Positions 5,057-25,300 of a stretch of 57,431 nucleotides of DNA are shown here, piece by piece; the stretch's first letter is position 1; each line of letters starts with the position of its first letter. The DNA is from an uncultured virus (IMG/VR IMGVR_UViG_3300009183_000053) (taxonomy: Duplodnaviria > Heunggongvirae > Uroviricota > Caudoviricetes), in IMG/VR virus record IMGVR_UViG_3300009183_000053, one strand, 5' to 3'. The notes beneath the pieces were generated by a model. That model was given only the letters and a program-made list of their open reading frames with translations. It did not search any database and was not told where the DNA came from. The position numbers were made by a program, and so were the translations under genes.

Positions 5057-6008
5057 AGAACGTAATGGAGCCTGAAGCATTAAATACATAAACTCTATAA
5101 CCACCTGCTACTGTGTATGTTGGTGAACCTGATGTTGCTGTAACTGCCGGATTAGAATCTGCAAACCGTATGATTACAATACCAGAACCACCTGTAGTGG
5201 CACTACCACCGCCACCGGCACCACCGCCTGTATTAACTGTGCCATTTTGTTGACCGCCATTGTTACCAGCGCCACGTCCGCCACCACCAAGACCACCTGC
5301 ACCACCTGCGTAAGCGCTAATATTTTCTACACCGCCACCACCACCGCCTGCATAATAGGTTGATGTTCCTGATATATTAAAAGATAATCCAACACCGCCA
5401 GCTGCGCCATTACTATTTACTGTACCTGATGCACCAGCACCACCTGCACCACCACCTGCACCAGCACTTGCAGATGCTGCGTTGAATCCTGTACCGCCAC
5501 CATATCCTTGTCTAGGAGGACCAACAGTACCTGCGCCACCTGCATTTGACCCATGACCACCGCCACCACCAGAACCACCATCGCCACCAAGACCACTGTA
5601 AGTGGCATAATAACCACCACGACCACCACCTATTGCAGTAATTGATGTGCCGACAATTGATCCATCAGATGCAACAAAAGAAACTGATGATGGACATGTA
5701 ATTAAACTGTTTGAACCGCTTGCATTTGTGCCTCCGCCAGCACCAACTGTAACAGTATATGCTCCAGCTGAAACTATTATGGTACCATACAGTAATCCAC
5801 CAGCACCGCCGCCTCCCGAATAATTAACGGAACCTCCACCACCTCCACCACCTGCAACAATAAGTGCTTGTATGTTGATTCTTGGCGCAGGCCAATTGCC
5901 TGCAGCTTTAGCTATTCTTTGGTCATCAGCAGAGTATACACCACCACTAGAACTACCTAATATTGTTTGTGTTGTACCTATGATACCAAAATTACTTCTT
6001 GTTCTCAT
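5055..6008 (-). CDS. Glycine-rich domain protein (putative receptor-binding tip)
   Basis: ALIVAGGGGGG...YYAGGGGGG...GGSGIVIIRF...YRVYVFNASGSITF motif set. Confidence 0.8.
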   Translation of the reverse strand: MRTRSNFGIIGTTQTILGSSSGGVYSADDQRIAKAAGNWPAPRINIQALIVAGGGGGGGSVNYSGGGGAGGLLYGTIIVSAGAYTVTVGAGGGTNASGSNSLITCPSSVSFVASDGSIVGTSITAIGGGRGGYYATYSGLGGDGGSGGGGGHGSNAGGAGTVGPPRQGYGGGTGFNAASASAGAGGGAGGAGASGTVNSNGAAGGVGLSFNISGTSTYYAGGGGGGVENISAYAGGAGGLGGGGRGAGNNGGQQNGTVNTGGGAGGGGSATTGGSGIVIIRFADSNPAVTATSGSPTYTVAGGYRVYVFNASGSITF

Positions 6009-6009
6009 T

Positions 6010-6366
6010 TTAGATAGTAATTAATTCATAACCCGCTGACATGTGTATTGCTGAGTTTGCGCTCACAACAGTTTGCAACACATCATTTTCTTCCAAATAA
6101 ATTGGACTATCTTTACCTAATAAAACTAATGTTGAATTTGGAGGTACGTTAACTTTTGCACCTAAGAAATATGTTGTGCCACTACGATTGATTATTGCAT
6201 TAGCAGAAACCACATCTGAGTTATTATAGTTTGTAAAAATTATTGAATTTAATTTTACAACTGTATTAGCTGAAACAGTAATAACATTTGATGATACGGT
6301 TGTACAGTTTGCTGTGGCAGTCTTGCCTGTTATTGTATTTGCACTGATTAAATTTGGTGCGGCCAT
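6010..6366 (-). CDS. ~110-aa beta-sandwich-like virion protein (putative adaptor, copy 4)
   Basis: Pattern shared with 8998, 12084 and 16678 ORFs (..IIFTN..STLVL..IYLEENDVL..GYEL). Confidence 0.7.
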   Translation of the reverse strand: MAAPNLISANTITGKTATANCTTVSSNVITVSANTVVKLNSIIFTNYNNSDVVSANAIINRSGTTYFLGAKVNVPPNSTLVLLGKDSPIYLEENDVLQTVVSANSAIHMSAGYELITI

Positions 6367-6367
6367 T

Positions 6368-7300
6368 TTATCCTCCGAATACTAATGAATACCCAACAAC
6401 CCTGGCATTATTTGTGGAACTTGTTGTTGAAGATGCAGTAGTTGTGTTTGAAAATGTTGGTGATACTATATCTACCCAATTGTTACTTGTGCCATCGTTT
6501 ATATATTCATAAAGAATGTCTGTTGCAATTATGTACCATTGGTCTCCCACTTTCGGACTTGTTGGTGCAGTGTTTGATGCAGTATAGGTGATGCCTGCTC
6601 CACCAGTATTTGCTTTTAAGAAGGCTGCATTAGCAGTACTGTATGCATTGTTGGCTTGGTTTCTCACCCATGTATCTGTGGAACCTGTATTTGCCTGAGC
6701 ATAGGCAGCATTAGCCCTATCAAAAGCACCATTAGCAAAACTGGCCGCAGCATTTGCAGTTACAAAAGCACCGTTAGCAAATGAACCTGCATTGTTTGCT
6801 TGTAAGAAAGCACCATTTGCAAAAGAAGAACCTGTGTTTGCAACTCCATAACTGGAATTAGCCCTATCGAAAGCACCGTTAGCAAACGATGCAGCTGCAT
6901 TGGCTGTTATGAAAGAACTGTTCGCAAATGAGGCACTAGAATTAACAGAAGCAAAGGCACCATTAGCAAATGAGGCTGCATTGTTTGATTGTTCGTAACT
7001 TGAATTTGCTCTTAAGAAAGCACCGTTAGCAAATGTTGCACCGGAGTTTGCGGTTGTAAATGATGCATTAGCAAATGTTGCACCGGAGTTGGCTGAATTA
7101 AATGCGTTGTTGGCCTGTGTTCTAACCCAGCTGTCGGTTGCATTATTGGCTGTATTGAATGCCGCATTAGCTCTATCAAAGGAACCATTTGCAAATGCAG
7201 CTGCCGTGTTTGCTTGGCCAAAGGCTGCATTAGCCCGTACAAATGCATCACTTGCAGTTGTATCATCTATAATAAATGGTTTTATTTTTAATAGTGACAT
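6368..7300 (-). CDS. Asn/Ala heptad coiled-coil fibre with APTSPKVGDQWY module and hydrophobic C-terminus YSLVFGG
   Basis: Translated sequence. Confidence 0.75.
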   Translation of the reverse strand: MSLLKIKPFIIDDTTASDAFVRANAAFGQANTAAAFANGSFDRANAAFNTANNATDSWVRTQANNAFNSANSGATFANASFTTANSGATFANGAFLRANSSYEQSNNAASFANGAFASVNSSASFANSSFITANAAASFANGAFDRANSSYGVANTGSSFANGAFLQANNAGSFANGAFVTANAAASFANGAFDRANAAYAQANTGSTDTWVRNQANNAYSTANAAFLKANTGGAGITYTASNTAPTSPKVGDQWYIIATDILYEYINDGTSNNWVDIVSPTFSNTTTASSTTSSTNNARVVGYSLVFGG

Positions 7301-7321
7301 TTTTTATTGAAGTGATATCTC

Positions 7322-7699
7322 TTAAATGTTTTCAATCTTTTTTACTTTTTCCCAATAATCTTCTGGACATGTTTGTGCTGAATTGGGATCATGCTGTTCT
7401 CCATAAATATCTTCAACCACTTCCCCATCAATATTTCTTAAAGCAAATACACAATAATAAATTGTGTCATCTTCTAAAGCAACAATTTTATGTTCTTGTT
7501 CTTTTTTAATAATAATAAAAGTTGGTGCGGTGAATTGTTTTGGTTCTTTACCTTCAACAGTAACTTCTACTTTACCTTTTGTTAGTAACGTTACATGGTC
7601 AAAAAAATGTTTGTGGCCAGGAGCTTTATCTTCCTTTCTTTCCAAAACATGTTGTCTAACCCAAATGTTTCCAAAATAACCAAGTTCATGCGATGACAT
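7322..7699 (-). CDS. Cupin-fold protein
   Basis: GHKHFFDHVTLL..G.V.V motif and later EH.I.ALED, typical RmlC-like cupin metal ligands. Confidence 0.7.
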   Translation of the reverse strand: MSSHELGYFGNIWVRQHVLERKEDKAPGHKHFFDHVTLLTKGKVEVTVEGKEPKQFTAPTFIIIKKEQEHKIVALEDDTIYYCVFALRNIDGEVVEDIYGEQHDPNSAQTCPEDYWEKVKKIENI

Positions 7700-7714
7700 A
7701 ATAATATAAACCTT

Positions 7715-8095
7715 TTAAACAGTTACTACTGGTGTTGATTCTCCGTCAGAGATATCTTTCCATGAAAGTGTTTCTTCATCCCAACTATACACTTTACCAT
7801 CTGTAGGCATAGCGACTGGCGCAGTCCACAAACAAGTGTCTTCTACTAATGTCCAACTATTATATGGTTTAGGTGGTATGAATGCATCACGACCTGAGTC
7901 ATAAGTATATCCTGTACCAGCATAATTCTTTCTCAATGGTGTTCCACCTAATGTGTGTACACCGGCATGTGTGTTGTAACTTGTTTGTACGAAAGAACTA
8001 GGTTCTCCGAATAAACCTGTATCAATCACATCTTGTTCTATTACTAGAACTTTTGTTACGATGTTGTTTTCATCTATTTGTGCGAAATGTGCCAT
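7715..8095 (-). CDS. Conserved phage protein (MAHFAQ...QTSYN...RKNYAG...DAFI...WDE), possible fibre assembly chaperone
   Basis: Motifs recognised from proteins usually adjacent to Gly-rich fibre genes; function inferred. Confidence 0.6.
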   Translation of the reverse strand: MAHFAQIDENNIVTKVLVIEQDVIDTGLFGEPSSFVQTSYNTHAGVHTLGGTPLRKNYAGTGYTYDSGRDAFIPPKPYNSWTLVEDTCLWTAPVAMPTDGKVYSWDEETLSWKDISDGESTPVVTV

Positions 8096-8104
8096 TTTTA
8101 CCTC

Positions 8105-8998
8105 TTAAGAAATTCTATATTTAACAATTACAATACCTGAACCACCAGCTTTTGCACCGCTGCCATTCCAGCCTGCGCCGCCACCGCCACCCATGTTAGC
8201 TACACCAGTTTCATCTGCTCTACCGGCACCTTGGCCACCAATTCCTCTGTATCTTTCATAGTTTTGTCCATATCCACTATTAATTCCAATACCGCCGCCG
8301 CCACCAACAAATGTAACTGTGTTTCCTTTTATCATAAAATATTGTGGAGGTCCACCTCCACCACCTACATCACCACCAAGGGGACTTCCTCGGCCTGCTG
8401 CACCAGAACCACCGTGTGAATAATAATTGCTACCTGATGTACCTGTTTGGAAACCATTGCCACTGATAGAATATATCCAACTGGTTTGTCCGCTTTGTGG
8501 ATTTGATCCACCAGTCGATGTTACACTTATGCCTGTTCCGATAAAAGAAGATGATGTTGCAGTACCAACAGTCCCAGCTGCTTGGCCACCACCAATTGTT
8601 ACTGTGTATGTTGCTGCTGCTAAAGTTGCTAGTGCTGAACCCTCAACAGCTATATCTCTAGTAAAAAGATTTGAATTTTCTGCACCATAATATTTTACTT
8701 GGCCACCAGCACCACCGGTTGTACTCGTATGGCCACCACTACCAGCACCCACAACTAACAATTCAATACTATTATTGGATGCACCTAAAGAACTTACTAC
8801 AAATGAACCACTTGATGTGAATGTATGTACTTTGTAAGTTGCATTATTTGCATCTATAAATGTAGTAACTGTACCACCTGTGGCCGTAGGTCCAACTGTG
8901 ACAGCACCGCCACCACCGCCAGCTGAAGCGACTGGTTGCTGGTAAGATATAGTCCTATTAAAAGCTAATCCACTTAAGGAAGATTTTTTAATTGCCAT
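8105..8998 (-). CDS. Glycine-rich domain protein (putative receptor-binding tip)
   Basis: ATGGTVT..YKVHTFTSSGSF..IELLVVGAG...GGSGIVIVKY. Confidence 0.8.
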   Translation of the reverse strand: MAIKKSSLSGLAFNRTISYQQPVASAGGGGGAVTVGPTATGGTVTTFIDANNATYKVHTFTSSGSFVVSSLGASNNSIELLVVGAGSGGHTSTTGGAGGQVKYYGAENSNLFTRDIAVEGSALATLAAATYTVTIGGGQAAGTVGTATSSSFIGTGISVTSTGGSNPQSGQTSWIYSISGNGFQTGTSGSNYYSHGGSGAAGRGSPLGGDVGGGGGPPQYFMIKGNTVTFVGGGGGIGINSGYGQNYERYRGIGGQGAGRADETGVANMGGGGGAGWNGSGAKAGGSGIVIVKYRIS

Positions 8999-9327
8999 TA
9001 GTAATTCTCCGAACCAAACGCACTAAAGGTAACGTTGCCTGTGTTAGCATAAACAGTAAGAACATCAGTTGCTGCTAGTGTTAAACCTAATGTCAAAGCA
9101 ACAGTATCACTTGCACCTAAAACTGTGTCGTATGAAATGTATTGTGAATTGGCCAATGATGCACCAGCTGGACGACAAGCAATTCTAAAACCTGTGGTAT
9201 TTGCTGACAAATTTGCAATTGAAATTGTAGAAATTACTGTGCTGTTTGCTGCTGGCACTGTGTAAAGAGTTGTTGCAGTATTTGGTGCTGGATTAGATTG
9301 ACCTAAAATTTTTAAGACCGATGGCAT
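8998..9327 (-). CDS. ~110-aa putative adaptor (copy 3)
   Basis: KILGQSNP..TATTLYTVPAA..RIACRPAGA..FGSE, clearly paralogous to 12084..12413. Confidence 0.8.
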   Translation of the reverse strand: MPSVLKILGQSNPAPNTATTLYTVPAANSTVISTISIANLSANTTGFRIACRPAGASLANSQYISYDTVLGASDTVALTLGLTLAATDVLTVYANTGNVTFSAFGSENY

Positions 9328-9330
9328 TTG

Positions 9331-9600
9331 TTAAGCTCCCATTAATAAAAAAGTGTTTGTATATGTTAATGCAACATTAGCGTTTACTAATGCAACATTA
9401 GCGGTTGCGTATGAAGAATTTGCTGTATTTGCGGAAGACCTTGCAAATGCTTCGGTGACTGATGGTGTACCACCTACAGTTGTACCATCATGCACGACTA
9501 CCACACCTTTAGTTGTGTCAACAGTAACTTCTCCGGTTGCTCCGGTAAAGATTATGGTCTGTGCAGTAGTTCCTCGCCTAAATTGTAGTTGTGTAGCCAT
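9331..9600 (-). CDS. Mini-fibre: Mtd_N/hyaluronidase-type N-terminal domain, short coil, C-terminal FLLMGA
   Basis: LQFRRGTTAQ..FTGATGEVTVDT..VVVHDG..GG motif. Confidence 0.75.
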   Translation of the reverse strand: MATQLQFRRGTTAQTIIFTGATGEVTVDTTKGVVVVHDGTTVGGTPSVTEAFARSSANTANSSYATANVALVNANVALTYTNTFLLMGA

Positions 9601-9619
9601 TTATATTCCTTAATATAAG

Positions 9620-9627
9620 TATTTATG
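9620..9627 (-). promoter_or_regulatory. Late promoter-like box CATAAATA
   Basis: Upstream of 9600. Confidence 0.55.
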
Positions 9628-9862
9628 TTAAATAACCCGCATCGAGTGGGATTAAACTATCTGGATAAAAAACTGATATTGTTGTTTTATTATCCCAAAT
9701 TCTACCATACTGTTCTAGACCTAATCCACCAAAAATTTCTTGTGCTACTGAACCGTAATCACCCAAAGGAAATTTAACCTGAGTAAATGTGTCTGAACTT
9801 GTATATCCTAAATCAATTAATGTTTGGTTGTCTATGTTTCTTCTGTTGATTTTTGTTGCCAT
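9623..9862 (-). CDS. 79-aa protein with repeated D-x-G motifs (DLGY, DYGS, DAGY)
   Basis: Upstream AAGGA RBS; fills the gap in the operon. Confidence 0.65.
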   Translation of the reverse strand: MATKINRRNIDNQTLIDLGYTSSDTFTQVKFPLGDYGSVAQEIFGGLGLEQYGRIWDNKTTISVFYPDSLIPLDAGYLT

Positions 9863-9873
9863 TTTTTAATCCT

Positions 9874-11109
9874 TTAAATCGCTGTGCCGGTATATATGGA
9901 AAGAATTTCTGAATCAGTCAATTCACCATCTATAATCTGAATTGCATCTAGTGATGTAGGAGATGCTACACCTGGATAAGGGTATTGTGTTCCTATATAA
10001 TTTGTTCCCATGTAATTACTATTAACTAAAATATTACTAGCAGAAGTTTCTTTAACTCCATTGACATAAGAATCTACTCTTAGAGTGGATTTAACAACCC
10101 ATGCTAACATAACCCAGCTGCCTGTGTTAACACTAGTTGTTCCTTGATTATCTGTTCCATTTGCTACTGTGATTTTTCCGTTACTCATACCTAAACCCCA
10201 ATAAGTGGCATTTCCGGTGTTAGCAAAGATTCCAACACTAGGTGAATAAGAACCTCCAGTATTACTTTGCGTGCCTTTATACCAAGCAACATAAGTTTTA
10301 CTTCTTGTTGATGAGTTGTCAGTTAATTGGTCTATTGTTAAGTAGGTACCTGTTCCCCATCCAGTTGCAAAACCAGAATTACTAACACCACCAGTTGATT
10401 GATAGGATAATGTTCCTACTGTTGTAACTGTGTAAGAACCTGTTACTGTTAAACCACTAGCATTAAATTGTAATCCTAGTAGTTTTGTTTTGCCAGCTGG
10501 CGTTTTTAATTCAACACCAGTAACAGCATTTATACTAAAACTTCTACTAGTTGTTTGTAACTCAGCATCAGTAGCTGTAATTGTAAAATTATAAGTAGCA
10601 GCTGAACCTGTAGTAGTACCAGAGATTACACCCGTACTTGAATTTAAACTTAATCCTGTTGGCAAACTGCCTGATGTAACACTGTAAGCAATTGTGGTAT
10701 CACTGTTTGCACTTATTGTAATTGATGTGCTTGCATCGACAAATGAAGAACCTAAAGAACCACTTGCAGTTGACCATATAGGCACATCACTAAAGGATAT
10801 ACCAGCAGGTTTAATTCCAGAAGAACCATCATCATTATAAACATAGACATTATATGTACCAGCAGTTTTGGCTGGACTTATAAATGTTAAACTTGCACCA
10901 CTTACATAGGTGGTGTTACAACTAGTTTCGTTTACATAAACGATTGAAGCAGCTTTAAAACCAGAACCATTAACTGTTACAGTTTCACCACCGGTTATCC
11001 TTGCAGCAGTAGCACTACCTGTAAAAGTTACAGATGATATCTTAATACCACCACCTAAAGAATTTAGTGCTGCTGTTGCTATGTTATCTGTTGTAATTTT
11101 GAGTGTCAT
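9874..11109 (-). CDS. Adhesin-like protein: IPT/TIG + putative Ig domain + LamG/ConA-like lectin domain
   Basis: GGETVTVNGSGF..GTYNVYVYN.DG (IPT); SGSLPTGLSLNSSTGVISGT..YNFTITATD (He_PIG-like); W.K..SW...YVNG..LD.IQI..L.DSEI..IY (LamG-like). Confidence 0.75.
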   Translation of the reverse strand: MTLKITTDNIATAALNSLGGGIKISSVTFTGSATAARITGGETVTVNGSGFKAASIVYVNETSCNTTYVSGASLTFISPAKTAGTYNVYVYNDDGSSGIKPAGISFSDVPIWSTASGSLGSSFVDASTSITISANSDTTIAYSVTSGSLPTGLSLNSSTGVISGTTTGSAATYNFTITATDAELQTTSRSFSINAVTGVELKTPAGKTKLLGLQFNASGLTVTGSYTVTTVGTLSYQSTGGVSNSGFATGWGTGTYLTIDQLTDNSSTRSKTYVAWYKGTQSNTGGSYSPSVGIFANTGNATYWGLGMSNGKITVANGTDNQGTTSVNTGSWVMLAWVVKSTLRVDSYVNGVKETSASNILVNSNYMGTNYIGTQYPYPGVASPTSLDAIQIIDGELTDSEILSIYTGTAI

Positions 11110-11118
11110 ATTATTTTC

Positions 11119-12084
11119 TTAGAATGTAATAGAACCTGAACTGGTCCATTTATAAACTCTGTAACCATCGGCAACTGTAACTGTTGGTGAACCTGTAGTT
11201 GCTGTTGCTGCTTTATAATCAACTGCATAACGAATAACAACTATGCCTGAACCACCTGTACCTGCACCACTTGAAGTATATCCTGCAGTACCATTAGAAC
11301 CTCCGCCGCCACCGCCAGAATTAATACCACCTGCGCCTGCAACAGCACCTACATTACCGTTGCCGCCACCATTACTACCGCCAGTGCCGGCAGTTGTGCC
11401 TGACCACGTACTACCGCCACCGCCACCGCCTGCGCCGCCGTCACCACCTTTTACACCAGTATTATAACAACCGCCACCACCACCGCCTGCATAATACAAT
11501 GATGTTCCGGTTATTGATGAAGATAATCCAGCTCCGCCGTTTCCACCAGAAGGGAAAGATGCTGCTATAGCATTAGAACCTGCAGCGCCAGCACCACCGC
11601 CACCTCCGCCTGCGCCGCCTGATCCATCAAGTCCACCGCCACCGTTGTTGCCTTGTCCTGCGGTGCCCGCACCACCACCTGATGCTACGCTAGCACTTCC
11701 TGAATCAGAACCTCCACCGCCAGAACCACCTGATGCGCCTTTACCTGCAATGCCCGATCCTCCATAACCACCGCCTAAAGATGTAATTGTTGAGAATGAT
11801 GAATTTGTGCCGTTCGCACCTGCAAGGTTTGTTGATGCAGCTGCACCAGCACCACCTGCACCAATTGTTACTGTTAATGATACACCAGGAGATACTGCAA
11901 AACCAGCTGCAGTTTTAAAACCACCAGCACCACCGCCACCACCAAGCCAAGCACCACCGCCACCACCACCAGCAACGACAAGATATTCAATTGCGTTTGC
12001 TGTTGGTATTGATGGATTAGATATACTTGTGCTATTAAAAACCTTAGCACTAAGTTTTTCTGTGCTGTGCGTTTTTACCACCAT
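11119..12084 (-). CDS. Glycine-rich domain protein (putative receptor-binding tip)
   Basis: IEYLVVAGGGGGG...GGSGIVVIRY...YRVYKWTSSGSITF; paralogue of 5055..6008. Confidence 0.8.
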   Translation of the reverse strand: MVVKTHSTEKLSAKVFNSTSISNPSIPTANAIEYLVVAGGGGGGAWLGGGGGAGGFKTAAGFAVSPGVSLTVTIGAGGAGAAASTNLAGANGTNSSFSTITSLGGGYGGSGIAGKGASGGSGGGGSDSGSASVASGGGAGTAGQGNNGGGGLDGSGGAGGGGGGAGAAGSNAIAASFPSGGNGGAGLSSSITGTSLYYAGGGGGGCYNTGVKGGDGGAGGGGGGSTWSGTTAGTGGSNGGGNGNVGAVAGAGGINSGGGGGGSNGTAGYTSSGAGTGGSGIVVIRYAVDYKAATATTGSPTVTVADGYRVYKWTSSGSITF

Positions 12085-12413
12085 TAACTAATCTCCGAAC
12101 CAAACAAGTTGAAACTTAGATTTGCAGTACCTGCATATACTGTAACTATATCAGTACTAGCTAGTGTGATACCAATTGTTAAACTGATACTATCGTAAGA
12201 TGGAATAGCACCATTGTATGCAATATAGTGTTTTGGATCCAATGTTGCACCTGCTGGTCGTATTGCAATTCTATAAAAATCATTACTAGCCGATTGATTA
12301 CAAATAGTAATAGTTGAAGCTATTGCACTTGTTGCTGCTGGCACCGTATAAAGTGTTGTTGCTGTTGTTGCCAGCGGGTTTGATTGTCCTAAAACTTTGT
12401 ATGTGATTGCCAT
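12084..12413 (-). CDS. ~110-aa putative adaptor (copy 2)
   Basis: YKVLGQSNP..TATTLYTVPAA..RIAIRPAGA..FGSEIS. Confidence 0.8.
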   Translation of the reverse strand: MAITYKVLGQSNPLATTATTLYTVPAATSAIASTITICNQSASNDFYRIAIRPAGATLDPKHYIAYNGAIPSYDSISLTIGITLASTDIVTVYAGTANLSFNLFGSEIS

Positions 12414-12422
12414 GTTCTTTCC

Positions 12423-15400
12423 TTATCCACCCATTAATAAAAATGGGCTTAATGTTTCAGCTGAAGATACTGTAACTGCTAATTCACGCACTTGAATATC
12501 AACACCAGTGGCAGGCGCAGTTGCAAATACTACGTTTGCACCAGATACTGTGTAGTCTGTAGTTGGTCTCTGTAAAATACCGTTTTCTGCAACAAGTAAA
12601 TTGTTTACATTTACACCAGAGGTTACTGTAAAGTTTGTTGCAGTATTGTTGCCTGTATATGTTCTATATATTAAACTACTAGAACTTATATTTGTACCTG
12701 ATAATGTTGTGACTTCAATGTATGCTGTGTTTGGTGGAACAGAATCAAATGTTAAAATGTTTCCTGATAAACTATAAGAAGTTTTAGGTTGCATCACACC
12801 TTGTACAGAAACAAAGATTATGTTTTCACTGTCTGGTGTTGTTGACAAAGTGAATGCTGAATTTGAACCATCGCCAGTAAACACATCAACAAAACCTGTT
12901 AATGTTGCAGTAGAACTGGTGTTTGCTTTATTGTAAGCCGCATTTGCTTGCGCTCTTGCCCAAGTGTCTGCACCACCGGCAGTATTGGCTGCTATGAAAG
13001 CTGCGTTAGCTGTATTGTATGCGTTGTTGGCTTGATTTCTAACCCACGGATCCGTTGCATTGTTAGCTGCATTGAAGGCTGCGTTAGCAGTTACAAAGGC
13101 ACCGTTAGCGAATGATGCAGCTGAGTTTGCTTTATCGAAAGCACCATTAGCAAATGATGCTGTGGTATTCTGAGAGGCATAAGAAGCATTAGCGGTTACA
13201 AAGGCACTGTTAGCAAATAATGCACCAGAATTGGCTGTTATGTAAGATGCGTTAGCAAATCCAGCAGTTGTATTTTGTGCTGTATATGATGCATTAGCAG
13301 TTATAAAAGCTGCATTAGCAAATGTTGCTGTGGTATTTTGTGCAATATAAGACGCATTGGCTCTTAGAAATGCACCGTTTGCAAATGAGTTGGTTACACC
13401 TATTGATGTTGCAATTGTTGTGCTAAAGTTGGCATCGTTACCTAACGCAGTTGCCAATTCATTTAATGTATCTAACGTTGTTGGCGCAGAGTTTACAAGA
13501 TTTGCAATTGCATTACCAACATAAGTTGTTGTTGCATATCCAGCAGAAGCATGATTGCCCCAAGCATATGCTGCATTGGCTGTTATGAAGGCACCATTAG
13601 CAAATGATGCACCAGAATTGGCTGCATTGTATGCTGCGTTTGCTTGTGTTCTTACCCAAGTATCTGTTGAGTTATTGGCCGCATTAAAGGCAGCATTAGC
13701 AGTTATGAAGGCACCATTAGCAAAACTGCCAGCACTATTGGCCTTATCATATGCATTATTAGCTTGAGTTCTTACCCAACTATCAGTAGAATTATTGGCT
13801 TGTAAGAAGGCAGCATTTGCTGTTGCATATGCGGAGTTTGCTCTAACAAAAGCAGAATTGGAGTTGTCTGTAACAACAGGAACATTACTTAATAATTCAC
13901 GTACTTGAATTATTGTTCCATTTGCTGGAGTATCCACAAAAGTAATAGTATTTCCTGTTACACTATAATCTGTTAGTGGATTTTGTGTAATACCATTATC
14001 AAAAACAAGTATACTATTTGCAGTTGTGTTAGATGAAATTGAAAATGTATTCGTGTTACCATCACCAGTAAAATTTCTGGTTATATAATAAACTGAAGCT
14101 GTATTACTGGCTGTAATAATTGTACTGTATGCTAAGTTTGCGGTAACGAAAGCTGCATTGGCTGTACTTCTTGCATATGCATCTGCACTGCCGGTGTTGG
14201 CTGCATTAAAGGCTGCGTTAGCAGTTACAAAGGCACTGTTAGCAAATGATGCCGTGGTGTTTTGTGATGTGTAAGATGCATTAGCAGTTATGAAGGCACC
14301 GTTAGCGAATGATGCTGTAGTATTCTGAGATGCATAAGAAGCATTAGCTGTTACAAATGCAGCATTAGCAAAACCTGCCGTGATATTCTGTGCAACATAT
14401 GATGCATTAGCAGTTACAAAAGCACCATTAGCAAATGATGCAGTAGTATTTTGTGCTGTATAGGATGCATTAGCTGTTACAAAAGATGCATTGGCCAATC
14501 CGGCCGTTATATTTTGAGATACATAAACTGCATTTGCTGTTGTATAAGATGCATTAGCAAATCCAGCAGTTATATTTTGTGATGTGTAAGAAGCATTAGC
14601 AGTTACAAAAGCACCATTAGCAAATGATGCTGCTGAGTTTGCAACTATAAAGGATGCATTTGCAAAACTGGCTGCTGAGTTGGCAACAACAAATGCACCA
14701 TTGGCAAAACTAGAACCAGTATTTGCAACTCCGTAACTAGAATTCGCACGGTCAAATGCACCATTAGCGAATGAAGCAGCTGCATTGGCGCCAACAAAAG
14801 CACCATTAGCAAATGAACCTGCATTGTTTGCCTGTACAAAAGCACCGTTAGCAAAACTGGCCGCTGAGTTAGCTGCCGTGTATGCTGTGTTTGCTTGTGT
14901 TCTGACCCAAGTATCGGTGGAATTATTGGCCGCATTAAAGGCTGCATTTGCCTTATCGAAGGCACCATTAGCAAATACAGCGGCTGAATTGGAGGTTATG
15001 AAAGATGCATTTGCAAAATTACCGGATGAATTGGCTGCAGCAAATGCATTATTAGCCTGACCTCTTACCCAAGTATCAGTAGAGTTATTGGCTGCATTAA
15101 AGGCTGCATTGGCCGTTGAATATGATGAATTGGCTCTGTTAAATGCTGAATTGGAATTATCAGTAACAACAGGAACATTACTTAATAATTCACGTACTTG
15201 AATTATTGTTCCATTTGCTGGAGTATCCACAAAGATGATTGTGTTTCCTGTTACACTATAGTCCGTTATTGGATTCTGTGTAATACCATTATCAAAAACA
15301 AGAATACTATTCGCAGATGTATTGGATGAAATTGAAAAGTTGTTTGTGTTACCATCACCAATAAAATTTCTGGTGATATAATACAATGCCGCTGTATTAC

Positions 15401-16676
15401 TGGCTGTAATAATTGTACTGTATGCTAAATTGGCTGTACTAAAAGCCGCATTTGCTTGTGCTCTCGCAAAAGTGTCCGCACCACCAGATGTATTTGCTTG
15501 TGCATAGGCTGCATTAGCATGGTTAAAAGCCAAACTAGATATTGTTACACCGGTATTGGCTTGTGTAAATGCACCATTAGCAAATGATGCTGCCGCATTG
15601 GCTGTTACAAAAGATGAATTAGCAAAACTAGAACCTGAATTTGCCGTAGTATAACTGGAGTTTGCTCTATCAAATGCACCATTAGCAAATGAACCAGCAC
15701 TTGTTGCTTTACTATCAGCTGTATTGGATGTTGTGAATGCTCCGTTAGCAAAACTTGCTGCTGAGTTAGCAGTTACAAATGCACCATTAGCAAAACTGCC
15801 AGCACTATTGGCTTTATCGTATGAATTATTAGCCTGACCTCTTACCCAAGTATCTGTTGAATTATTAGCCTGTGCGTAGGCCGCATTAGCACGGTCAAAG
15901 GCTGCATTAGAAAAGATTGCAGTAGTGTTTTGTGAAAGATATGATGCATTAGCGGTTACAAAGGACGCATTGGCAAACGATGCTGATGAATTAGCCGTAT
16001 CAAATGCATTATTAGCCTGACTTCTTACCCACGTATCAGTAGAATTATTTGCCTGTGCATAAGCAGCATTGGCTCTATCGAAAGATGCATTAGCAAATAT
16101 AGATGTTGAGTTGGCAACTACAAAAGAACCATTGGCAAACGAAGCTGCCGAGTTGGCCTTATCGTATGCCGTGTTAGCTTGTGTTCTTACCCATGTATCG
16201 GTGGAACTATTGTTGGCCTGCAAAAAGGCCGCATTAGCAGTTGCATACGCTGCATTGGCAGTGTTTGATGCATATGGATCTACGGCACCACCGCCAGTGA
16301 TAGTTGTTATCTCAACATTGGCACCATTTTCAAATGTGGTATCAAAGTAAACTACATTACCTGTAACAGTATATGTACTTCTTAATTGAGTAATACCATC
16401 GACTACCGCAATTATATAGTTTTCACTTGATGGTGTTGTACTTAAATTAAATGTTGATGTTGCACCATTAGCGGTGAACGCATCGGAATAAACTGATACT
16501 GGTGATGCAGTAAAGTTTCCACCAGTATTTGCTTGTGCATAGGCTGCGTTGGCCCTAGCAAAAGCCGCATTGGCAAAAGAGGCTGCTGAGTTAGCAGTTA
16601 CAAATGCACCATTAGCAAATGAACCAGCTAACCTTACATCCTTCTTATCTTGATTGCCAATGTAAGTAAATTCCAT
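12423..16676 (-). CDS. 1417-aa fibre trunk: Asn/Ala heptad coiled coils, five ~60-aa beta domains, APTTLDTLNELATALGND fibre motif, C-terminal PFLLMGG
   Basis: Translated sequence; recognised tail-fibre motif. Confidence 0.8.
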   Translation of the reverse strand: MEFTYIGNQDKKDVRLAGSFANGAFVTANSAASFANAAFARANAAYAQANTGGNFTASPVSVYSDAFTANGATSTFNLSTTPSSENYIIAVVDGITQLRSTYTVTGNVVYFDTTFENGANVEITTITGGGAVDPYASNTANAAYATANAAFLQANNSSTDTWVRTQANTAYDKANSAASFANGSFVVANSTSIFANASFDRANAAYAQANNSTDTWVRSQANNAFDTANSSASFANASFVTANASYLSQNTTAIFSNAAFDRANAAYAQANNSTDTWVRGQANNSYDKANSAGSFANGAFVTANSAASFANGAFTTSNTADSKATSAGSFANGAFDRANSSYTTANSGSSFANSSFVTANAAASFANGAFTQANTGVTISSLAFNHANAAYAQANTSGGADTFARAQANAAFSTANLAYSTIITASNTAALYYITRNFIGDGNTNNFSISSNTSANSILVFDNGITQNPITDYSVTGNTIIFVDTPANGTIIQVRELLSNVPVVTDNSNSAFNRANSSYSTANAAFNAANNSTDTWVRGQANNAFAAANSSGNFANASFITSNSAAVFANGAFDKANAAFNAANNSTDTWVRTQANTAYTAANSAASFANGAFVQANNAGSFANGAFVGANAAASFANGAFDRANSSYGVANTGSSFANGAFVVANSAASFANASFIVANSAASFANGAFVTANASYTSQNITAGFANASYTTANAVYVSQNITAGLANASFVTANASYTAQNTTASFANGAFVTANASYVAQNITAGFANAAFVTANASYASQNTTASFANGAFITANASYTSQNTTASFANSAFVTANAAFNAANTGSADAYARSTANAAFVTANLAYSTIITASNTASVYYITRNFTGDGNTNTFSISSNTTANSILVFDNGITQNPLTDYSVTGNTITFVDTPANGTIIQVRELLSNVPVVTDNSNSAFVRANSAYATANAAFLQANNSTDSWVRTQANNAYDKANSAGSFANGAFITANAAFNAANNSTDTWVRTQANAAYNAANSGASFANGAFITANAAYAWGNHASAGYATTTYVGNAIANLVNSAPTTLDTLNELATALGNDANFSTTIATSIGVTNSFANGAFLRANASYIAQNTTATFANAAFITANASYTAQNTTAGFANASYITANSGALFANSAFVTANASYASQNTTASFANGAFDKANSAASFANGAFVTANAAFNAANNATDPWVRNQANNAYNTANAAFIAANTAGGADTWARAQANAAYNKANTSSTATLTGFVDVFTGDGSNSAFTLSTTPDSENIIFVSVQGVMQPKTSYSLSGNILTFDSVPPNTAYIEVTTLSGTNISSSSLIYRTYTGNNTATNFTVTSGVNVNNLLVAENGILQRPTTDYTVSGANVVFATAPATGVDIQVRELAVTVSSAETLSPFLLMGG
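13860..15460. repeat. Internal ~300-bp duplication (about 13860-14160 and 15150-15460)
   Basis: Long identical runs, e.g. gtaacaacaggaacattacttaataattcacgtacttgaattattgttccatttgctggagtatccacaaa in both copies. Confidence 0.85.
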
Positions 16677-16677
16677 G

Positions 16678-17004
16678 TTATGTTATTTCCAATAGACTCA
16701 CAATAACATCAGCTGCTGAAGCATTACTTGTTGAGACTTTTAGTATATCATTGGCTCTCATTACTAATTTTTGTTCACCACCAATAGTAATTAAAGAATT
16801 ACCTGGATCAATTGGTGCCATCTTAACCATATAATAGTCCGACCCACCAGAAGTTAAAATGACGTTTGCGGTTATTGATGTGTTTAGTATGTTTGCTATA
16901 GTCATGCCAATGACTGTCGTTGATACATTGGCACCAGCTGTATAGATTGCTGTAGGTGATGTTCCGACTGCTGCTTGTAGTTGATTTTTAAAAGTATTTG
17001 CCAT
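16678..17004 (-). CDS. ~110-aa putative adaptor (copy 1)
   Basis: MANTFKN..IYTAGA..TVIGMTIAN..KLVMRANDILKV..SLLEIT. Confidence 0.75.
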   Translation of the reverse strand: MANTFKNQLQAAVGTSPTAIYTAGANVSTTVIGMTIANILNTSITANVILTSGGSDYYMVKMAPIDPGNSLITIGGEQKLVMRANDILKVSTSNASAADVIVSLLEIT

Positions 17005-17022
17005 TTAAATTTCCTTATCCTT

Positions 17023-17030
17023 TATTTATT
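17023..17030 (-). promoter_or_regulatory. Late promoter-like box AATAAATA
   Basis: Intergenic, upstream of 17004. Confidence 0.6.
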
Positions 17031-17032
17031 CA

Positions 17033-17512
17033 TCAACTAAAGGCGATAGTGAAAGCAACAATGTCTGAGTTAGTGTCTAGTGCTGTTGTTCCTGTATTAG
17101 CTTTGGTATAAGCTGCATTAGCATGAGTGAACGCCGCATTAGCAAACGATGCAGTTGTATTTTGTGCTGCATATGCAGCGTTGGCACGGTCAAACGCAGG
17201 ACCAGGGTCATTTCCACCTGATACCGATGCATTGATTGTGATTGTTTTTGTGGTTGTATTTGTGCTGATGGTAACATTATTACCAGCAATGAAAGACAAG
17301 GTGTCCGAACCACTTCCCGCAAATATTAGGGAGCTGTTTGAGTTGATTGTGTCAAACGAAAATTGGTTGGAGATGTATGAAGTTCCACCAAGACTGTTTT
17401 TATAAAACAGTTTTCCATCGGCGTAGTTAAGAGCGACCTCACCAAATGCAAGACCTGATGGTGTGTTTCCTGTTACGCCTGATTTTTTTAACTGTATTGC
17501 TGTGTTTGACAT
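17033..17512 (-). CDS. Mini-fibre with T4 gp37-like N-terminal domain and hydrophobic C-terminus IVAFTIAFS
   Basis: IQLKKS..P..L..GEVALNYADGKLFYK. Confidence 0.7.
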   Translation of the reverse strand: MSNTAIQLKKSGVTGNTPSGLAFGEVALNYADGKLFYKNSLGGTSYISNQFSFDTINSNSSLIFAGSGSDTLSFIAGNNVTISTNTTTKTITINASVSGGNDPGPAFDRANAAYAAQNTTASFANAAFTHANAAYTKANTGTTALDTNSDIVAFTIAFS

Positions 17513-21400: not shown

Positions 21401-22393
21401 TTATTCGGTTCGCATCCAAACATATAATGGATCAATGTCTGGTGTTGTATTGGCTGTGCCAAAGGCTGTGTTGGTAACTGCTACCCAGGTACCAAAACCA
21501 AACAATGTATTCGGATTAGCACTGTTCAATCCGTTCATGTAAATTGAACCAATCGGATAACCAGTGGTTAATGTATTTATTGTGGTAGGAATAGAAGGTT
21601 TATCTGATAAATCAAAGTAAGAACCTGATGTGGCCACTGAAGCTAAACCTGCAACAGCTGATGCATTAATTAAAATTGCGATATTGTTTGCTGAAGTAAG
21701 TCTACCTCTGTTATCAACGGTGAATCTTGGCACAAAAGATTGTGACCCATATGAACCAGCCGTTACACCTGTTATAGTTAGTCTAGCTGATGGTAAAAAA
21801 CCTGCGTTTATATTAGCTGCATCTGTTGTGTCTGTTGTTGCTGATGTGGCCAAACCAGTAACTTGTGCAGATGATATTGATATTGTAACGTTAGCTGCTG
21901 ATGTAATTCTACCATAAGAATCTACTACAAATCTTGAGTATGCGGAACCAGCTGAGGAACCATATGTACCAATTGTTACTGCTGTTGTTGGTAATCTGGC
22001 CGCAGGTAACGTACCTGATGTAATGTTATCAGCAACTGTAGTATCCGTGGTTGCTGATGCAACAAAGGTTGGATAACCAGTAATCTGTGAAGTTGCAATT
22101 TGAATTGCAGTGTTAACCACACTAGTAATTCTGCCTTTTGCATCTACGTTAAATTTTGGAACAGAACTTGCTGTACCATAACCTGTTGCAGATACGCCAG
22201 TATTAATGAATCTAGCATCAACAAATGTACCAGATGTTACTTGACTTGTAGTTATTGCAACAGCCTGTTGTGACGCTGATGTAATTCTACCTTGAGCATC
22301 AGTAACTATTGTTGGTATTTGTGTGGCATCACCATAAGTACCAGCAGTGACTGCTGTGTTTGCCAGTACTGATGGCGTTATCTTTGTTGTCAT
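21401..22393 (-). CDS. Fibre protein with four YG..P.F.VD..GR.T repeats and a short gp10-C-like end
   Basis: YPIGSIYM..NP..LFGFGTW..YVWMRT. Confidence 0.7.
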   Translation of the reverse strand: MTTKITPSVLANTAVTAGTYGDATQIPTIVTDAQGRITSASQQAVAITTSQVTSGTFVDARFINTGVSATGYGTASSVPKFNVDAKGRITSVVNTAIQIATSQITGYPTFVASATTDTTVADNITSGTLPAARLPTTAVTIGTYGSSAGSAYSRFVVDSYGRITSAANVTISISSAQVTGLATSATTDTTDAANINAGFLPSARLTITGVTAGSYGSQSFVPRFTVDNRGRLTSANNIAILINASAVAGLASVATSGSYFDLSDKPSIPTTINTLTTGYPIGSIYMNGLNSANPNTLFGFGTWVAVTNTAFGTANTTPDIDPLYVWMRTE

Positions 22394-25300
22394 TTAATCT
22401 GTCCTTTTAATACTTCAATTTCTGCTTTAAGTTCTTTAATTGCTTCAATCAAAACACCAACAATGTTACCATAAGATACTGACATAAACTCATCATCACT
22501 TGCGGCTTCCATAACAACTTCAGGTAATACTTCTTTCATTTCTTGTGCAATAACACCAACACCTTTTGTGCCAGAATCAATTCTTTCATAAGTAACACCA
22601 CGCATTTTTGATACAGTGTCTAAAGCATTTGTAATTGTTTCGACATTTGTTTTTAATCTTGCATCAGAGTAAGCAGTAACGTTGTTTCTAAACACTGCAT
22701 TACCAACAGTATCTAATGTCATTCTATATGTATTTAAACCATCGGACCATCCACCAATTCTAAAGACGTTATCATTGTCCAGTCCCATATTAATCGCAAA
22801 TGAACCTGGTCTATGAAACGACATGGTGGCGTGGTTTGTACCTATATTACCATTATTACCATAAACAACCAACGTACCCGCTTGACTAGCTGTACCTGTA
22901 GGAGATCCAGACTTATGATTGCGTGTTCCTGTAATATCAAAAGTATCACTTGTATTTAATACATCTGCACCATTAACAACCAAACCTTGGCCATTTAAAT
23001 AATATTTCGTACCATCATTAAAAAGATATCTATTTTGGGCACTATTTAAATAAAGAACACCAGTTGTACCACCAGTTCTATATGCGGTGATATCACCCGA
23101 AAGTGCCAATGTAACCTTACCTGTACCCGATACTGTAGTCTCACCAGTAAATGCTGCTCCGGCTAGTTTTGCCAAACCTGTAGGTAGTCTTGCATCTGCC
23201 AATGTTCCGGATGAAATATTGCTTGCGTTGGTTGTATCGGTAATAGTTGGGAAATCCGATATCTGTGATTTTGTAATAGAAATTTGTGAATCACCTGCAG
23301 CTGTCAGTCTACCTTTTGCATCAACAGTAAAGGTTCCAACTTTAGCGGCACCACCATATGAACCAGCTGACACTGCTGTTGATGGTAATCGAGCGTCAGG
23401 CAATGTACCTTTGTCGATGTTACCAGCACTTGTAGTATCAATCGTTGCTGAGTTTGCCAATGTTGGGAAGTCCGACACCTGAGATTTGGTGATAGAAATA
23501 GTAACGTTCGATACGGCAGTAACTCTACCTTTGCCATCAACTTTAACTTGAGCAATTTTTGATGCGGCGCCATATGTGTATGCATTTGCATCTGGACCAG
23601 CATCAATTAATTGACTGTCTGCAATAGTACCAGTAATTTTTGTATTTGCAAGACTTGTTATCCAAGATGGATTAGCATAAGAACTACTTGAATACAATCC
23701 ATTTGTTACTGTGCCTGCATTACCTGTAATACTTGATGTTAATGTGTACCCAGCATTTGCAAGATTGTTTACGAATGCTGTTGTAGCAAAATGTGTGTTT
23801 GATGTAGTAATTGGCATAGTAAGGCCATCAACACGACCTGTAAATGTACCACCAATCTTCGGCATCTTTCTAGTTTCTAGGTTGTCAATCGCATCTTGAA
23901 TAGTTGCACCAGACATATCACCAGATACAGGACCGTAAACAATATTGTTTGCAAAATACTCATACACCGCATAACCATCGACCTCAACCAATATTTTATC
24001 ACCTGTTACTGGTGCGCTTGTGAACTGTATAATTGAATTTGAAGTGAATGCATTATATTCAGATTCTAATTGACGCACACCGTTAATGTATGTTCTCAGT
24101 TGTGTACCAACACTAAATGTTGGTGTAGTAAATTTGGTTGTAAGGCTATCACCAGTATATGATAAACGTGATGATGAAATTCTAGAACCTGGTTGTGTAC
24201 CACCTCCACCACCTGTACCACCGGTGACCCAAGAATATCCACCTGATCCATCTGTACCCAAAACTTTTCCTGCGGCACCTGAACCTGCTGCAGCAGTGAC
24301 AGTCAAACCAAATAATGATGCGTAGGATGATGTTCCTGTACCACCTTGGCCAACCTGTAGTGGTGTTGTTAGTGATATTGCAGCAAAGGTTGGTGAACCT
24401 GTTGTGGTTAGGTCTTGTGATGTGCTAATTGACAATGTGTTGCCAGTACCATTATCATTTGTGGCAAATATAACAATACCATTGTTACTCTTTAGTGTAA
24501 TACCAGCAACATTTGCAGTAACAAAACCTGTTGTTCCTTTAATTGTTGCAACAGTCGTATTAGCTTTATCAAATGCTGCATTGGCCTGTGCAAATGCTGG
24601 TGCAACCTGAGGTGCCACATTGTTTGCGGATTCATATGCAGCATTTGCATGTCTGAACGCAGCATTAGCAAAAGATGCAGTTGTATTTTGTGAAGTGTAA
24701 GATGAATTGGCTCTTACAAATGCTGCGTTTGCAAACTTATCTGATGAATCAATTCGACCTTGTAAGAATGTATTTGCAGTTGTAATTTTAGTATTCAACG
24801 TATTGGCTGCTGTGGAAGAAGCGGCCTGTGCGGCTGTTTGGTCTAATGCATCACTAACATATTGATCCGTTATTATTCTATAATAATTGCCGTTAGTTAC
24901 ATTTAATATATCAAAGTTTTTATTTGTTTCGTTCCAACGAAGACTTGCATTTGCACCAGTAACACCTCTATTAATATCAATTGAACTAATTAATCCTTCA
25001 TTTGATCCTGCGTTCAAGGTAAATACATTTGAGTTGTATATTGTTGTGCCATTAATAACAAAATTACCACCAACCGATAGTTGTCCTACAGTTTGTAAAT
25101 TATTAACAAACACTGATGCGTTATTAGCATCAATTTTTTGTGTCACACTCATTGTTGCAGTGTTTACAGAAATGTTTGATTGTAATCTATTTGTAAATGT
25201 ATTACCTGTTACATTTAATAATGGTGTATATACAATACTATTTGCTTCTAATCTATTTGCAAATGCTGTTGTTGATACACTTAAAATTTGCGTGTTAACG

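Follow-up and report, generated by a model that had tools for sequence, protein, structure and literature searches.

A proposed plug, adaptor and head joint between tail fibre polypeptides of an uncultured T4-like phage and its relatives

Which bacteria a phage can infect depends on its tail fibres. The long tail fibre of phage T4 consists of several polypeptides (gp34-gp35-gp36-gp37) connected without covalent bonds, and small proteins take part at the joint. To our knowledge, little is known of how marine and freshwater T4-like phages, pelagiphages and cyanophages assemble their very long fibres, which are encoded by several genes. Here we describe a recurrent arrangement of fibre genes in a 57,431-nucleotide (nt) stretch of DNA, hereafter the window, from an uncultured virus of the Caudoviricetes (IMG/VR record IMGVR_UViG_3300009183_000053). 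It combines a protein ending in a short hydrophobic peptide (the plug), a predicted jelly-roll protein of ~110 amino acids (aa) (the adaptor) and a protein that starts with a conserved peptide (the head). It is probable, in our judgement, that plug, adaptor and head act as a non-covalent connector which joins the polypeptides of modular tail fibres.

The system resembles the T4 long tail fibre as a multi-polypeptide fibre of a T4-like myovirus with small joint proteins. It differs in that one ~110-aa jelly-roll family, found in three classes, is combined with terminal peptide motifs at every joint. No family of the T4 hinge proteins gp35 and gp36 is present among the PHROG and Pfam matches of the adaptors, which leaves room for a very distant relation. 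In phages T2 (gp38), Mu and lambda (Tfa), a small gene localized directly downstream of the fibre gene codes for a product that binds the carboxyl-terminal end of the fibre. The adaptor gene is also found directly downstream of a fibre gene, but the adaptors match no Tfa/gp38-like family in Pfam or NCBIfam and their PHROG matches are not chaperone families. A further difference from Tfa and gp38 lies in the distal protein of matching class that comes after the adaptor and is sometimes fused to it.

Branched receptor-binding proteins (RBPs) of Klebsiella podophages feature, according to the accessible part of their description, a branching domain on RBP1 and a conserved docking peptide on RBP2 (PMC13352976). 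The likeness to what that part describes lies in a short conserved terminal peptide that docks on a dedicated domain and makes the tips exchangeable. There, the docking domain is inside RBP1 and only an amino-terminal peptide is reported, whereas here a separate adaptor stands between a carboxyl-terminal plug and an amino-terminal head. In the chain-like fibres of podophage A1002, as far as the available text goes, units dock by an augmented beta-sheet with a dock domain and dimers are arranged along a 'rope' protein (PMC13730344). Several fibre units dock in both systems, but those of A1002, in the same text, do not follow an end-to-end order of plug, adaptor and head. Full-text literature searches, with most subscription journals outside the searched text, gave no description of these motifs or of the adaptor, and a full-text search for the plug motifs returned unrelated papers only.

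Five joints and a large adaptor family

The original prediction was that, at four joints between positions 6,010 and 17,512 of the window, a hydrophobic carboxyl-terminal peptide is always followed by a ~110-aa paralogue. The open reading frames (ORFs) and their translations confirm the coordinates and peptide endings of all four (Table 1; adaptors are named by their first coordinate). The next gene product is, as had been claimed, a 1417-aa shaft after adaptor 16678 and a glycine-rich tip after the other three, the tips matching PF21722 (Pfam Gly_rich_2; E 2e-16, 5e-9 and 1.8e-17). In the window this next gene overlaps the adaptor stop codon by 1 nt or starts within 1 nt of it. All joint genes are on the minus strand, in a region crowded with tail fibre genes.

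A fifth joint is localized outside the window (G000:C1:78777-80165 onward; locus L166:436-2786). There, a 351-aa SFANGAF-repeat protein that ends SPFLFLGI (genome positions 78777-79832) is followed after a 9-nt gap by a 109-aa class-A adaptor (79842-80165) and by an overlapping gene for a glycine-rich protein whose likely start reads MGIKSAS.

Plugs were assigned to three classes by patterns in the last 6-9 residues. Class A is FLLMGA-like (phi-phi-L-x-G-x), class B is AFTIAFS/LAIALG-like (A-phi-x-I-A-phi-G/S) and class B2 is SLVFGG-like (S-phi-V-F-G-x). Among the 764 mechanically called ORFs of at least 50 aa in the complete 179,754-bp genome, exactly five have such an ending. All five stand directly before one of the five adaptor genes of the genome, and the plug class is that of the adaptor in 5/5 joints. 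The IVAFTIAFS plug of the 159-aa protein is kept in 36 close relatives, while more distant ones carry the variants AFAIALG or LAIALG.

Table 1. Components of the four joints in the window
Feature	Positions	Strand	Remarks
Proximal fibre segment, 159 aa	17033..17512	-	Anchor-like amino terminus, short Ala-rich coil, class-B plug DIVAFTIAFS at the end
Class-B adaptor, 108 aa, predicted single jelly roll	16678..17004	-	28 nt after the 159-aa gene
Shaft, 1417 aa, ~24 SFANGAF-type repeats	12423..16676	-	Class-B head MEFTYIGNQ, class-A plug SPFLLMGG; starts 1 nt past the stop codon of adaptor 16678
Class-A adaptor, 109 aa, single eight-stranded jelly roll (AlphaFold2 model)	12084..12413	-	9 nt after the 1417-aa gene
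Glycine-rich tip, 321 aa, PF21722	11119..12084	-	Class-A head MVVKTHS; start overlaps the stop of adaptor 12084 by 1 nt
Anchor, 89 aa: Mtd_N domain PF18454 (E 3.3e-13), short coil, class-A plug NTFLLMGA	9331..9600	-	
Class-A adaptor, 109 aa	8998..9327	-	3 nt after the 89-aa gene
Glycine-rich tip, 297 aa, PF21722	8105..8998	-	Class-A head MAIKKSS; 1-nt overlap with the stop of adaptor 8998
Shaft, 310 aa, SFANGAF repeats	6368..7300	-	Ends in class-B2 plug GYSLVFGG
Class-B2 adaptor, 118 aa, jelly roll (AlphaFold2 model)	6010..6366	-	1 nt after the 310-aa gene
Glycine-rich tip, 317 aa, PF21722	5055..6008	-	Starts 1 nt after the B2 adaptor

The two FLLMG endings precede, as predicted, the two most similar adaptors, 12084 and 8998, which are 57% identical (BLASTP E 1e-34). 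Adaptors 16678 and 6010 share 26% identity (E 9e-8), and BLASTP gives no significant match between the two pairs. In profile comparison with hhalign, class A matches class B (probability 97.7%, E 2e-12) and class B matches the 6010 type (probability 97.6%, E 3e-12), the match of class A to the 6010 type being weak (E 0.0068). A single hidden Markov model of class-B homologues finds all four window adaptors in the phage genome (E 2.6e-49, 2.8e-12, 2.2e-6 and 1.4e-4). By these comparisons the four adaptors are homologous, as the word paralogue in the original prediction implied. Adaptors 16678, 12084 and 8998 match phrog_1276 at its positions 1-111 of 325 (E 3.2e-8, 4.9e-10 and 2.4e-6), and adaptor 6010 has no direct match to it in the PHROG search. 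Residues K6, Y22, N39 and E107 are nearly invariant in the adaptors; the positions conserved in classes A and B are K6, Y21/22, N38/39 and E106/107.

The AlphaFold2 (AF2) model of adaptor 12084 is a complete eight-stranded jelly roll (predicted local distance difference test, pLDDT, 94.6; predicted template modelling score 0.85) and so, also with confidence, is that of adaptor 6010 (pLDDT 91.5). The structural neighbours of the class-A model are generic jelly rolls (best Z 9.7); those of the 6010 model are 7vrr_A (Z 10.2), 7a02_A (9.4), 4ind_A (9.2), 8qpg_TD (9.1) and 7dou_4 (8.8). Common to both models are HDT1/nucleoplasmin-like cores, the trimeric cement protein of phage KHP40, turret domains of archaeal viruses and Bacillus Ena subunits (Z 8.8-10.2). 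Chains like tumour necrosis factor (TNF), namely APRIL, BAFF and CD40L, score Z 6.5-7.4, below the nucleoplasmin-like, cement, turret and Ena chains. Foldseek against the PDB returns capsid jelly rolls of the satellite tobacco mosaic virus type (E ~3e-4, TM ~0.5). The Foldseek check suggested along with the original prediction yielded generic jelly-roll neighbours and no family assignment.

The Ena subunits and an ExsF-peptide complex (7a02, 8pdz, 9h3d) are small jelly rolls like the adaptors and rank with their best structural neighbours (Z 9.1-9.4; 9h3d_E Foldseek E 2.5e-3). Going by the titles of the PDB entries, Ena subunits form disulfide-linked pili and ExsF was solved with the amino-terminal peptide of an anchor protein. 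Identity to the adaptors is 5-14%, a generic likeness of fold for which no homology is claimed. The adaptors match no Pfam family at E<=0.01, no named family in the ESM Atlas and no meaningful family in NCBIfam, where the sole row, NAD kinase, scores 16 bits with the cutoff at 304.

The family is very large: the class-A query matches no fewer than 7,989 clusters at 90% identity (~109 aa), 2,278 clusters at 50% identity match the class-A adaptor at E<=1e-3 and 163 predicted viral structures match at E<=1e-3. Class A was found in the Pontimonas siphophage phiPsal1. Class-B relatives are present in 52 cultured-phage records, several of them labelled 'virion structural protein'. They include Pelagibacter podophages, Roseobacter phage CRP-9, Puniceispirillum phage HMO-2011, Rhizobium myophages, the cyanophages S-TIM5 and S-SRM01, Methylophilales phage Melnitz, Ochrobactrum phage vB_OspM_OC and Yersinia phage vB_Yru_GN1; the structural label is attached to adaptor homologues of HTVC010P, S-TIM5, Rhizobium phages and others.

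Some 109-aa homologues (P0013, P0038, P0067, P0071 and others) were named 'glucose-6-phosphate dehydrogenase assembly protein OpcA' by JGI, which looks like a propagated mis-annotation. P0158 and P0164 have a hydrophobic, signal-peptide-like amino terminus ahead of the adaptor domain and are perhaps secreted proteins of cellular organisms related to the phage adaptor.

Matching of plug, adaptor and head

Viral contigs were scanned with the class-A and class-B adaptors, which gave 157 loci with 184 adaptor copies. For each copy a script took the two flanking ORFs, the one that ends immediately before the adaptor and the one that begins immediately after it, and de-duplication left 145 joints. 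An A plug precedes an A adaptor in 78 of them and a B plug a B adaptor in 57; crossed classes (A adaptor with B plug, or B adaptor with A plug) number 0 of 145, a zero that, like the background count, is descriptive and no formal test, the patterns having been set after seeing the data. Five A adaptors have another upstream ending, and for five A or B adaptors the upstream ORF is absent, four of these having at most 288 nt of sequence ahead of the adaptor. Plug class and adaptor class agree in 135/135 classified joints. The gap between plug gene and adaptor is -1 to 42 nt in the 140 other joints and 1-28 nt in the window.

Plug patterns end 145 of the 2,550 distinct ORFs of at least 60 aa on both strands of the 157 loci, and 128 of these stand directly before a detected adaptor. 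The remaining 17 are all on the fibre strand. Six of them, with the plugs AIAMSIVFGF/SIIFGI, stand before proteins of 119 aa that belong to the 6010 type (phmmer E 2.6e-13 to 7e-7), two are one small gene away from an adaptor, six precede a different gene (five of these genes having a common conserved amino terminus) and the rest precede further fibre genes.

A sample independent of the adaptor was obtained by scanning with the Mtd_N anchor of the 89-aa protein. It comprised 80 loci, 12 of them with incomplete genes, from which 57 distinct proteins were kept. An adaptor adjoins 12 of the 18 plug-bearing proteins, with matching class in 12/12 (A 2, B 9, B2 1). Of the 39 proteins lacking a pattern plug, 37 are not followed by an adaptor; the other two end IPLILALS and IPLIVALG, clearly plug variants. 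Plug and following adaptor are associated in this sample (Fisher's exact p 1.8e-6). In the homologues of the 89-aa protein, a single conserved Mtd_N anchor domain is combined with A, B, B2 or other endings, hence plugs are exchanged independently of the rest of the protein.

These data bear on the possibility that plug and adaptor are merely co-inherited as a cassette without contact, the plug being an intrinsic trimerisation or membrane-active motif and the adaptor binding another part of the fibre. It would fit that fine covariation is absent in class A and that plugs occur without an adjoining adaptor (see below). It has to face that the same anchor domain carries different plugs, that the class matches in every adjoining case of both samples and that the proteins upstream of adaptors, of 22 to 1330 aa, have the plug as their sole common feature. 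Mere co-inheritance seems distinctly unlikely to us, and we retain the connector as the preferred reading.

The third partner is class-specific as well. Proteins after A adaptors start M-[AS]-[IV]-[KR]-x-x-S and those after B adaptors M-x-[YF]-[IL]-G or M-x-F-x-Y-I-G; the heads behind the two A adaptors and the B adaptor of the window fit their class (Table 1). An overlap of 1 or 4 nt between the adaptor gene and the next gene is seen in 56/86 class-A joints, and the spacing is -1 or +1 nt in 47/58 class-B joints, a layout in which the third gene is, as far as gene positions tell, translationally coupled to the adaptor gene.

Adaptor and distal protein also occur as one polypeptide. Among 96 longer homologues, 27 are an adaptor with a carboxyl-terminal extension, 13 of which have PF21722, 51 have 150-260 residues inserted after adaptor strand 1 and seven are tandem doubles. 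Adaptor-tip fusions turn up also among the 150 best cluster representatives. The fusion P0140 (362 aa) has 60% identity to adaptor 12084 over residues 1-111 and 78% to the tip 11119..12084 over its last 41 residues. Eight direct fusions have a linker of 9-18 residues between adaptor and glycine-rich core, while 32 separate tips have at least 25 residues ahead of the core. The fusions thus lack the head peptide, as expected if the head serves docking. The insertion homologues (P0348-P0421) keep the first strand, MATTYKVLGQ, followed by the 150-260-aa domain and the remainder of the jelly roll, which means that whole domains are tolerated in the loop behind strand 1. To judge from these architectures, mature fibre proteins retain the adaptor domain.

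The original prediction further held that the tail peptide inserts into the adaptor, which recruits the next gene product. Recruitment is supported by the class-specific amino-terminal motif, the overlapping or near-touching genes and the natural adaptor-tip fusions without a leader peptide; the interpretation as a whole is partly supported.

A further plug is present on 0/73 complete proteins after A adaptors and on 18/38 proteins after B adaptors (13 A, 5 B). Because of this difference, B joints are read as internal, extending the shaft, and A joints as terminal, attaching an end piece. The long fibre of the window has this order, a B joint and then an A joint.

The order and the fusions also bear on a different role, in which the ~110-aa protein would be a distal knob, a receptor-binding cap, and the downstream glycine-rich proteins would be independent fibres elsewhere on the baseplate. 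Small jelly rolls commonly make fibre knobs and TNF-like neighbours were found at Z ~7; the adaptor is the last fibre gene in some phages, and the first-loop insertion of the 51 longer homologues is, by eye, possibly a binding domain. Such a role appears most improbable, since the near invariance of K6, Y22, N39 and E107 across hosts is unexpected for a receptor-binding surface, the 1417-aa shaft with its B head comes after a B adaptor, almost half of the proteins after B adaptors have their own plug and adaptor-tip fusions exist.

The proposed connector and its alternatives

In the connector that we favour, the proximal polypeptide would end in a hydrophobic plug of class A, B or B2, confined to its last 6-9 residues. 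The matching ~110-aa single jelly-roll adaptor would bind the plugs, probably as an oligomer around the fibre axis, with the trimeric shaft at its centre. Binding would use the conserved adaptor face with K6, Y22, N39 and E107. The distal polypeptide would dock on the same adaptor via its class-matched head, such that the free carboxyl terminus of the plug and the amino terminus of the head both contact the adaptor. B joints would lengthen the shaft, and the terminal tip, which probably binds the receptor, would be attached at A joints. The long fibre of the phage would then consist of the 159-aa anchor, B adaptor, 1417-aa shaft, A adaptor and glycine-rich tip, and a very short fibre of the 89-aa anchor, A adaptor and tip. 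Of further fibres, one would be joined by B2 and a fourth lies outside the window. Gene anatomy, the agreement in class among the three elements, the fold, the fusions and insertions and the structural-protein annotations of homologues were established directly, while we infer physical binding of plug and head, stoichiometry and binding face.

Several observations weigh against this proposal. Plug-adaptor binding rests on inference. The AF2 monomer already has all eight strands of its fold and leaves no gap for the plug to fill. The plug therefore does not supply a missing strand; in light of the models it would more likely add to an edge strand or lie in a groove between subunits. The structural neighbours are a generic likeness of fold, and the A and B adaptor profiles find no solved relative among PDB sequences (best matches unrelated enzymes, E 0.027 and 0.1). 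The plug patterns were written after the data were seen, and the 'virion structural' labels are record annotations taken as given. In 5/86 class-A adaptors the upstream ORF lacks a pattern plug; one of the five ends IFTLMGA, a variant outside the pattern, two (L028, L071) have the plug gene one small ORF further upstream and two (L008, L062) stand as exceptions. The covariation of tail and adaptor expected in the original prediction holds at the level of classes but not within class A, where residue-level covariation is absent in a tree of 83 adaptors: the plug variants FLLMGA (MGx) and LMLGGM (xGM) switch at least 12 times, even beside near-identical adaptors, and so give no covariation pointing to a contact.

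Adjacency is also not obligatory. The original 'always followed' stands in 5/5 joints of the genome and fails elsewhere, in Melnitz and for six B plugs of the Mtd_N sample without an adjoining adaptor, all before one conserved gene; this too speaks against the connector. The six proteins (L171, L176, L180, L188, L192, L231) and a counterpart in Melnitz (L248:15471-15686) are coiled-coil proteins of 71-746 aa with an Mtd_N anchor that end SIALG or AIALG. The closest phage-record matches of the gene that follows (L188 copy tested) are annotated as neck proteins or head-tail adaptors. The Melnitz protein likewise stands before a gp13-like neck gene without an adjoining adaptor. Standing before a neck gene, these plugs are in what we take to be the position of the T4 fibritin. 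A search for adaptors in five contigs with such orphan plugs was empty, which is uninformative as the contigs are only 4-5% complete fragments.

Donor-strand complementation of the chaperone-usher type does not fit the AF2 models, whose folds are complete (pLDDT 94.6 and 91.5). P0215, an amino-terminal peptide followed by a poly-Gly stretch and an adaptor, was considered as a single-chain plug-adaptor, but its amino-terminal piece resembles the beginning of a Gly-rich domain rather than a plug. The read-through protein P0351 was not used as a fold test because its 3-residue link would force a hairpin regardless of the truth. A complex prediction with three copies each of adaptor 8998 and the 89-aa protein, using their own alignments, gave 0.00 and 0.01 against a mark of 0.32; run without controls, it speaks neither for nor against binding.

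Gene order was read in four cultured phages. The adaptor gene of phiPsal1 lies six bases behind the gene for an 86-aa protein with the ending LMLMGG. In HTVC010P, the 121-aa 'virion structural protein' AGE60294 (phrog_1276) is homologous to the class-B adaptor (34% identity, E 1e-6), and the 178-aa protein encoded upstream of it ends PTALAIALG; the AGE60294 record states no function, there is no distal partner there, and a literature search for structure or proteomics of HTVC010P gave nothing usable. The lack of anything tip-like after the adaptor in HTVC010P and phiPsal1 is a further point against the connector. In vB_Yru_GN1, ORF52 ends SMAIALG, ORF53 is the adaptor and ORF54 ('tail fiber protein') starts MSYLG, a full B joint beside separate genes annotated as tail fiber assembly protein (e.g. 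ORF55). Melnitz has a single adaptor place in its record by tblastn, and the 17 kb that were read code for two proteins with B plugs and four with B heads, one protein having both. This suggests that the Melnitz adaptor is used in trans.

HTVC010P and phiPsal1 would fit a reading in which the ~110-aa protein is a trans-acting cap for folding or registration (a 'foldon in trans') that grips three plugs and nucleates trimerisation of the shaft, retention in the virion being optional and attachment of the next protein secondary or nil. A gene directly after the fibre gene is typical of fibre chaperones, and B plugs are found also on the fibritin-position proteins before the neck gene. Such a cap is nevertheless unlikely: adaptor-tip fusions and the 51/96 insertion homologues show the adaptor domain kept in mature fibre proteins, the amino terminus of the next protein is class-matched, vB_Yru_GN1 has separate annotated tail fiber assembly genes and homologues are annotated, by record label, as virion structural proteins.

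A broader form of the connector is conceivable, though we hold it more tentatively. The three classes of plug, adaptor and head would be an orthogonal trans-acting assembly code, by which one adaptor gene serves combinatorial fibres made of interchangeable segments and tips. The jelly roll would read the free hydrophobic carboxyl terminus of any segment and the amino terminus of any head of its class, by analogy with a PDZ domain that reads carboxyl-terminal peptides. Melnitz, with its two B plugs and four B heads for one adaptor place, suggests a code of this kind.

If the connector is right, the plug, adaptor and head classes provide a rule readable from sequence that predicts end-to-end joins of fibre genes, their order and the terminal tip gene. 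It would give a role to a very large family (2,278 clusters at 50% identity) without a Pfam or NCBIfam model or a solved structure, and would account for the shuffling of anchors, shafts and tips between phages. The joint elements would be defined handles for studying and exchanging receptor-binding tips in laboratory phage-host pairs. The assembly code, if true, would underlie fibre modularity in phages of SAR11, SAR116, roseobacters, cyanobacteria, rhizobia and enterobacteria.

Genomic setting and neighbouring genes

The window corresponds to positions 18970-76400 (minus strand) of a 179,754-bp virus record with direct terminal repeats that is rated 100% complete. By PHROG matches the rest of the window codes for T4-like baseplate wedge and hub proteins, a tail-tube protein, a DNA end protector, a gp32-like single-stranded DNA-binding protein and a gp59-like helicase loader. 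The phage is hence assigned to the T4-like myoviruses; its G+C content is ~37%.

Some genes near the joints have features of their own. The 310-aa shaft with the B2 plug (6368-7300) starts MSLLKIKPF, resembling a class-A head; were this a genuine head, the segment might itself be carried by an A adaptor and would be an exception to the terminal position of A joints. The products of 9874-11109 and 9623-9862 (both minus strand) also start like class-A heads (MTLKITT.. and MATKINR..), neither gene being directly after an adaptor. The first carries TIG and He_PIG domains, as found between adaptor and Gly-rich core in the fused P0191 (by eye also in P0243 and P0244). ORFs with a similar amino terminus (MTTKISRNNIND) come after A adaptors in L029, L038 and L043. 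These are possible alternative partners of the A adaptor.

The product of 7715-8095 (minus strand) belongs to a ~125-aa family, phrog_7759 (E 4.9e-35; amino terminus MAHFAQ/MSHYAK), that recurs beside fibre tips and is found also in Melnitz (L248:3313-3684 and 5943-6326). In L028 and L008, the plug gene is separated from the adaptor by an ORF of 117-119 aa whose carboxyl-terminal ending is, by eye, like that of this family. The ~125-aa protein is a candidate tip-specific assembly factor.

Another fibre gene, 22390-26619 (minus strand), codes for a 1409-aa protein that matches 'long tail fiber distal subunit' PHROGs and has neither plug nor adaptor. Its carboxyl terminus resembles by eye what we take to be a self-cleaving intramolecular chaperone domain, in which case the phage would have two different solutions for fibre ends. 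Beside the baseplate genes, 26845-33225 (minus strand) codes for a 2126-aa protein that matches phrog_358, of unknown function, over 1,780 residues (E 0), a very large conserved protein of the virion module.

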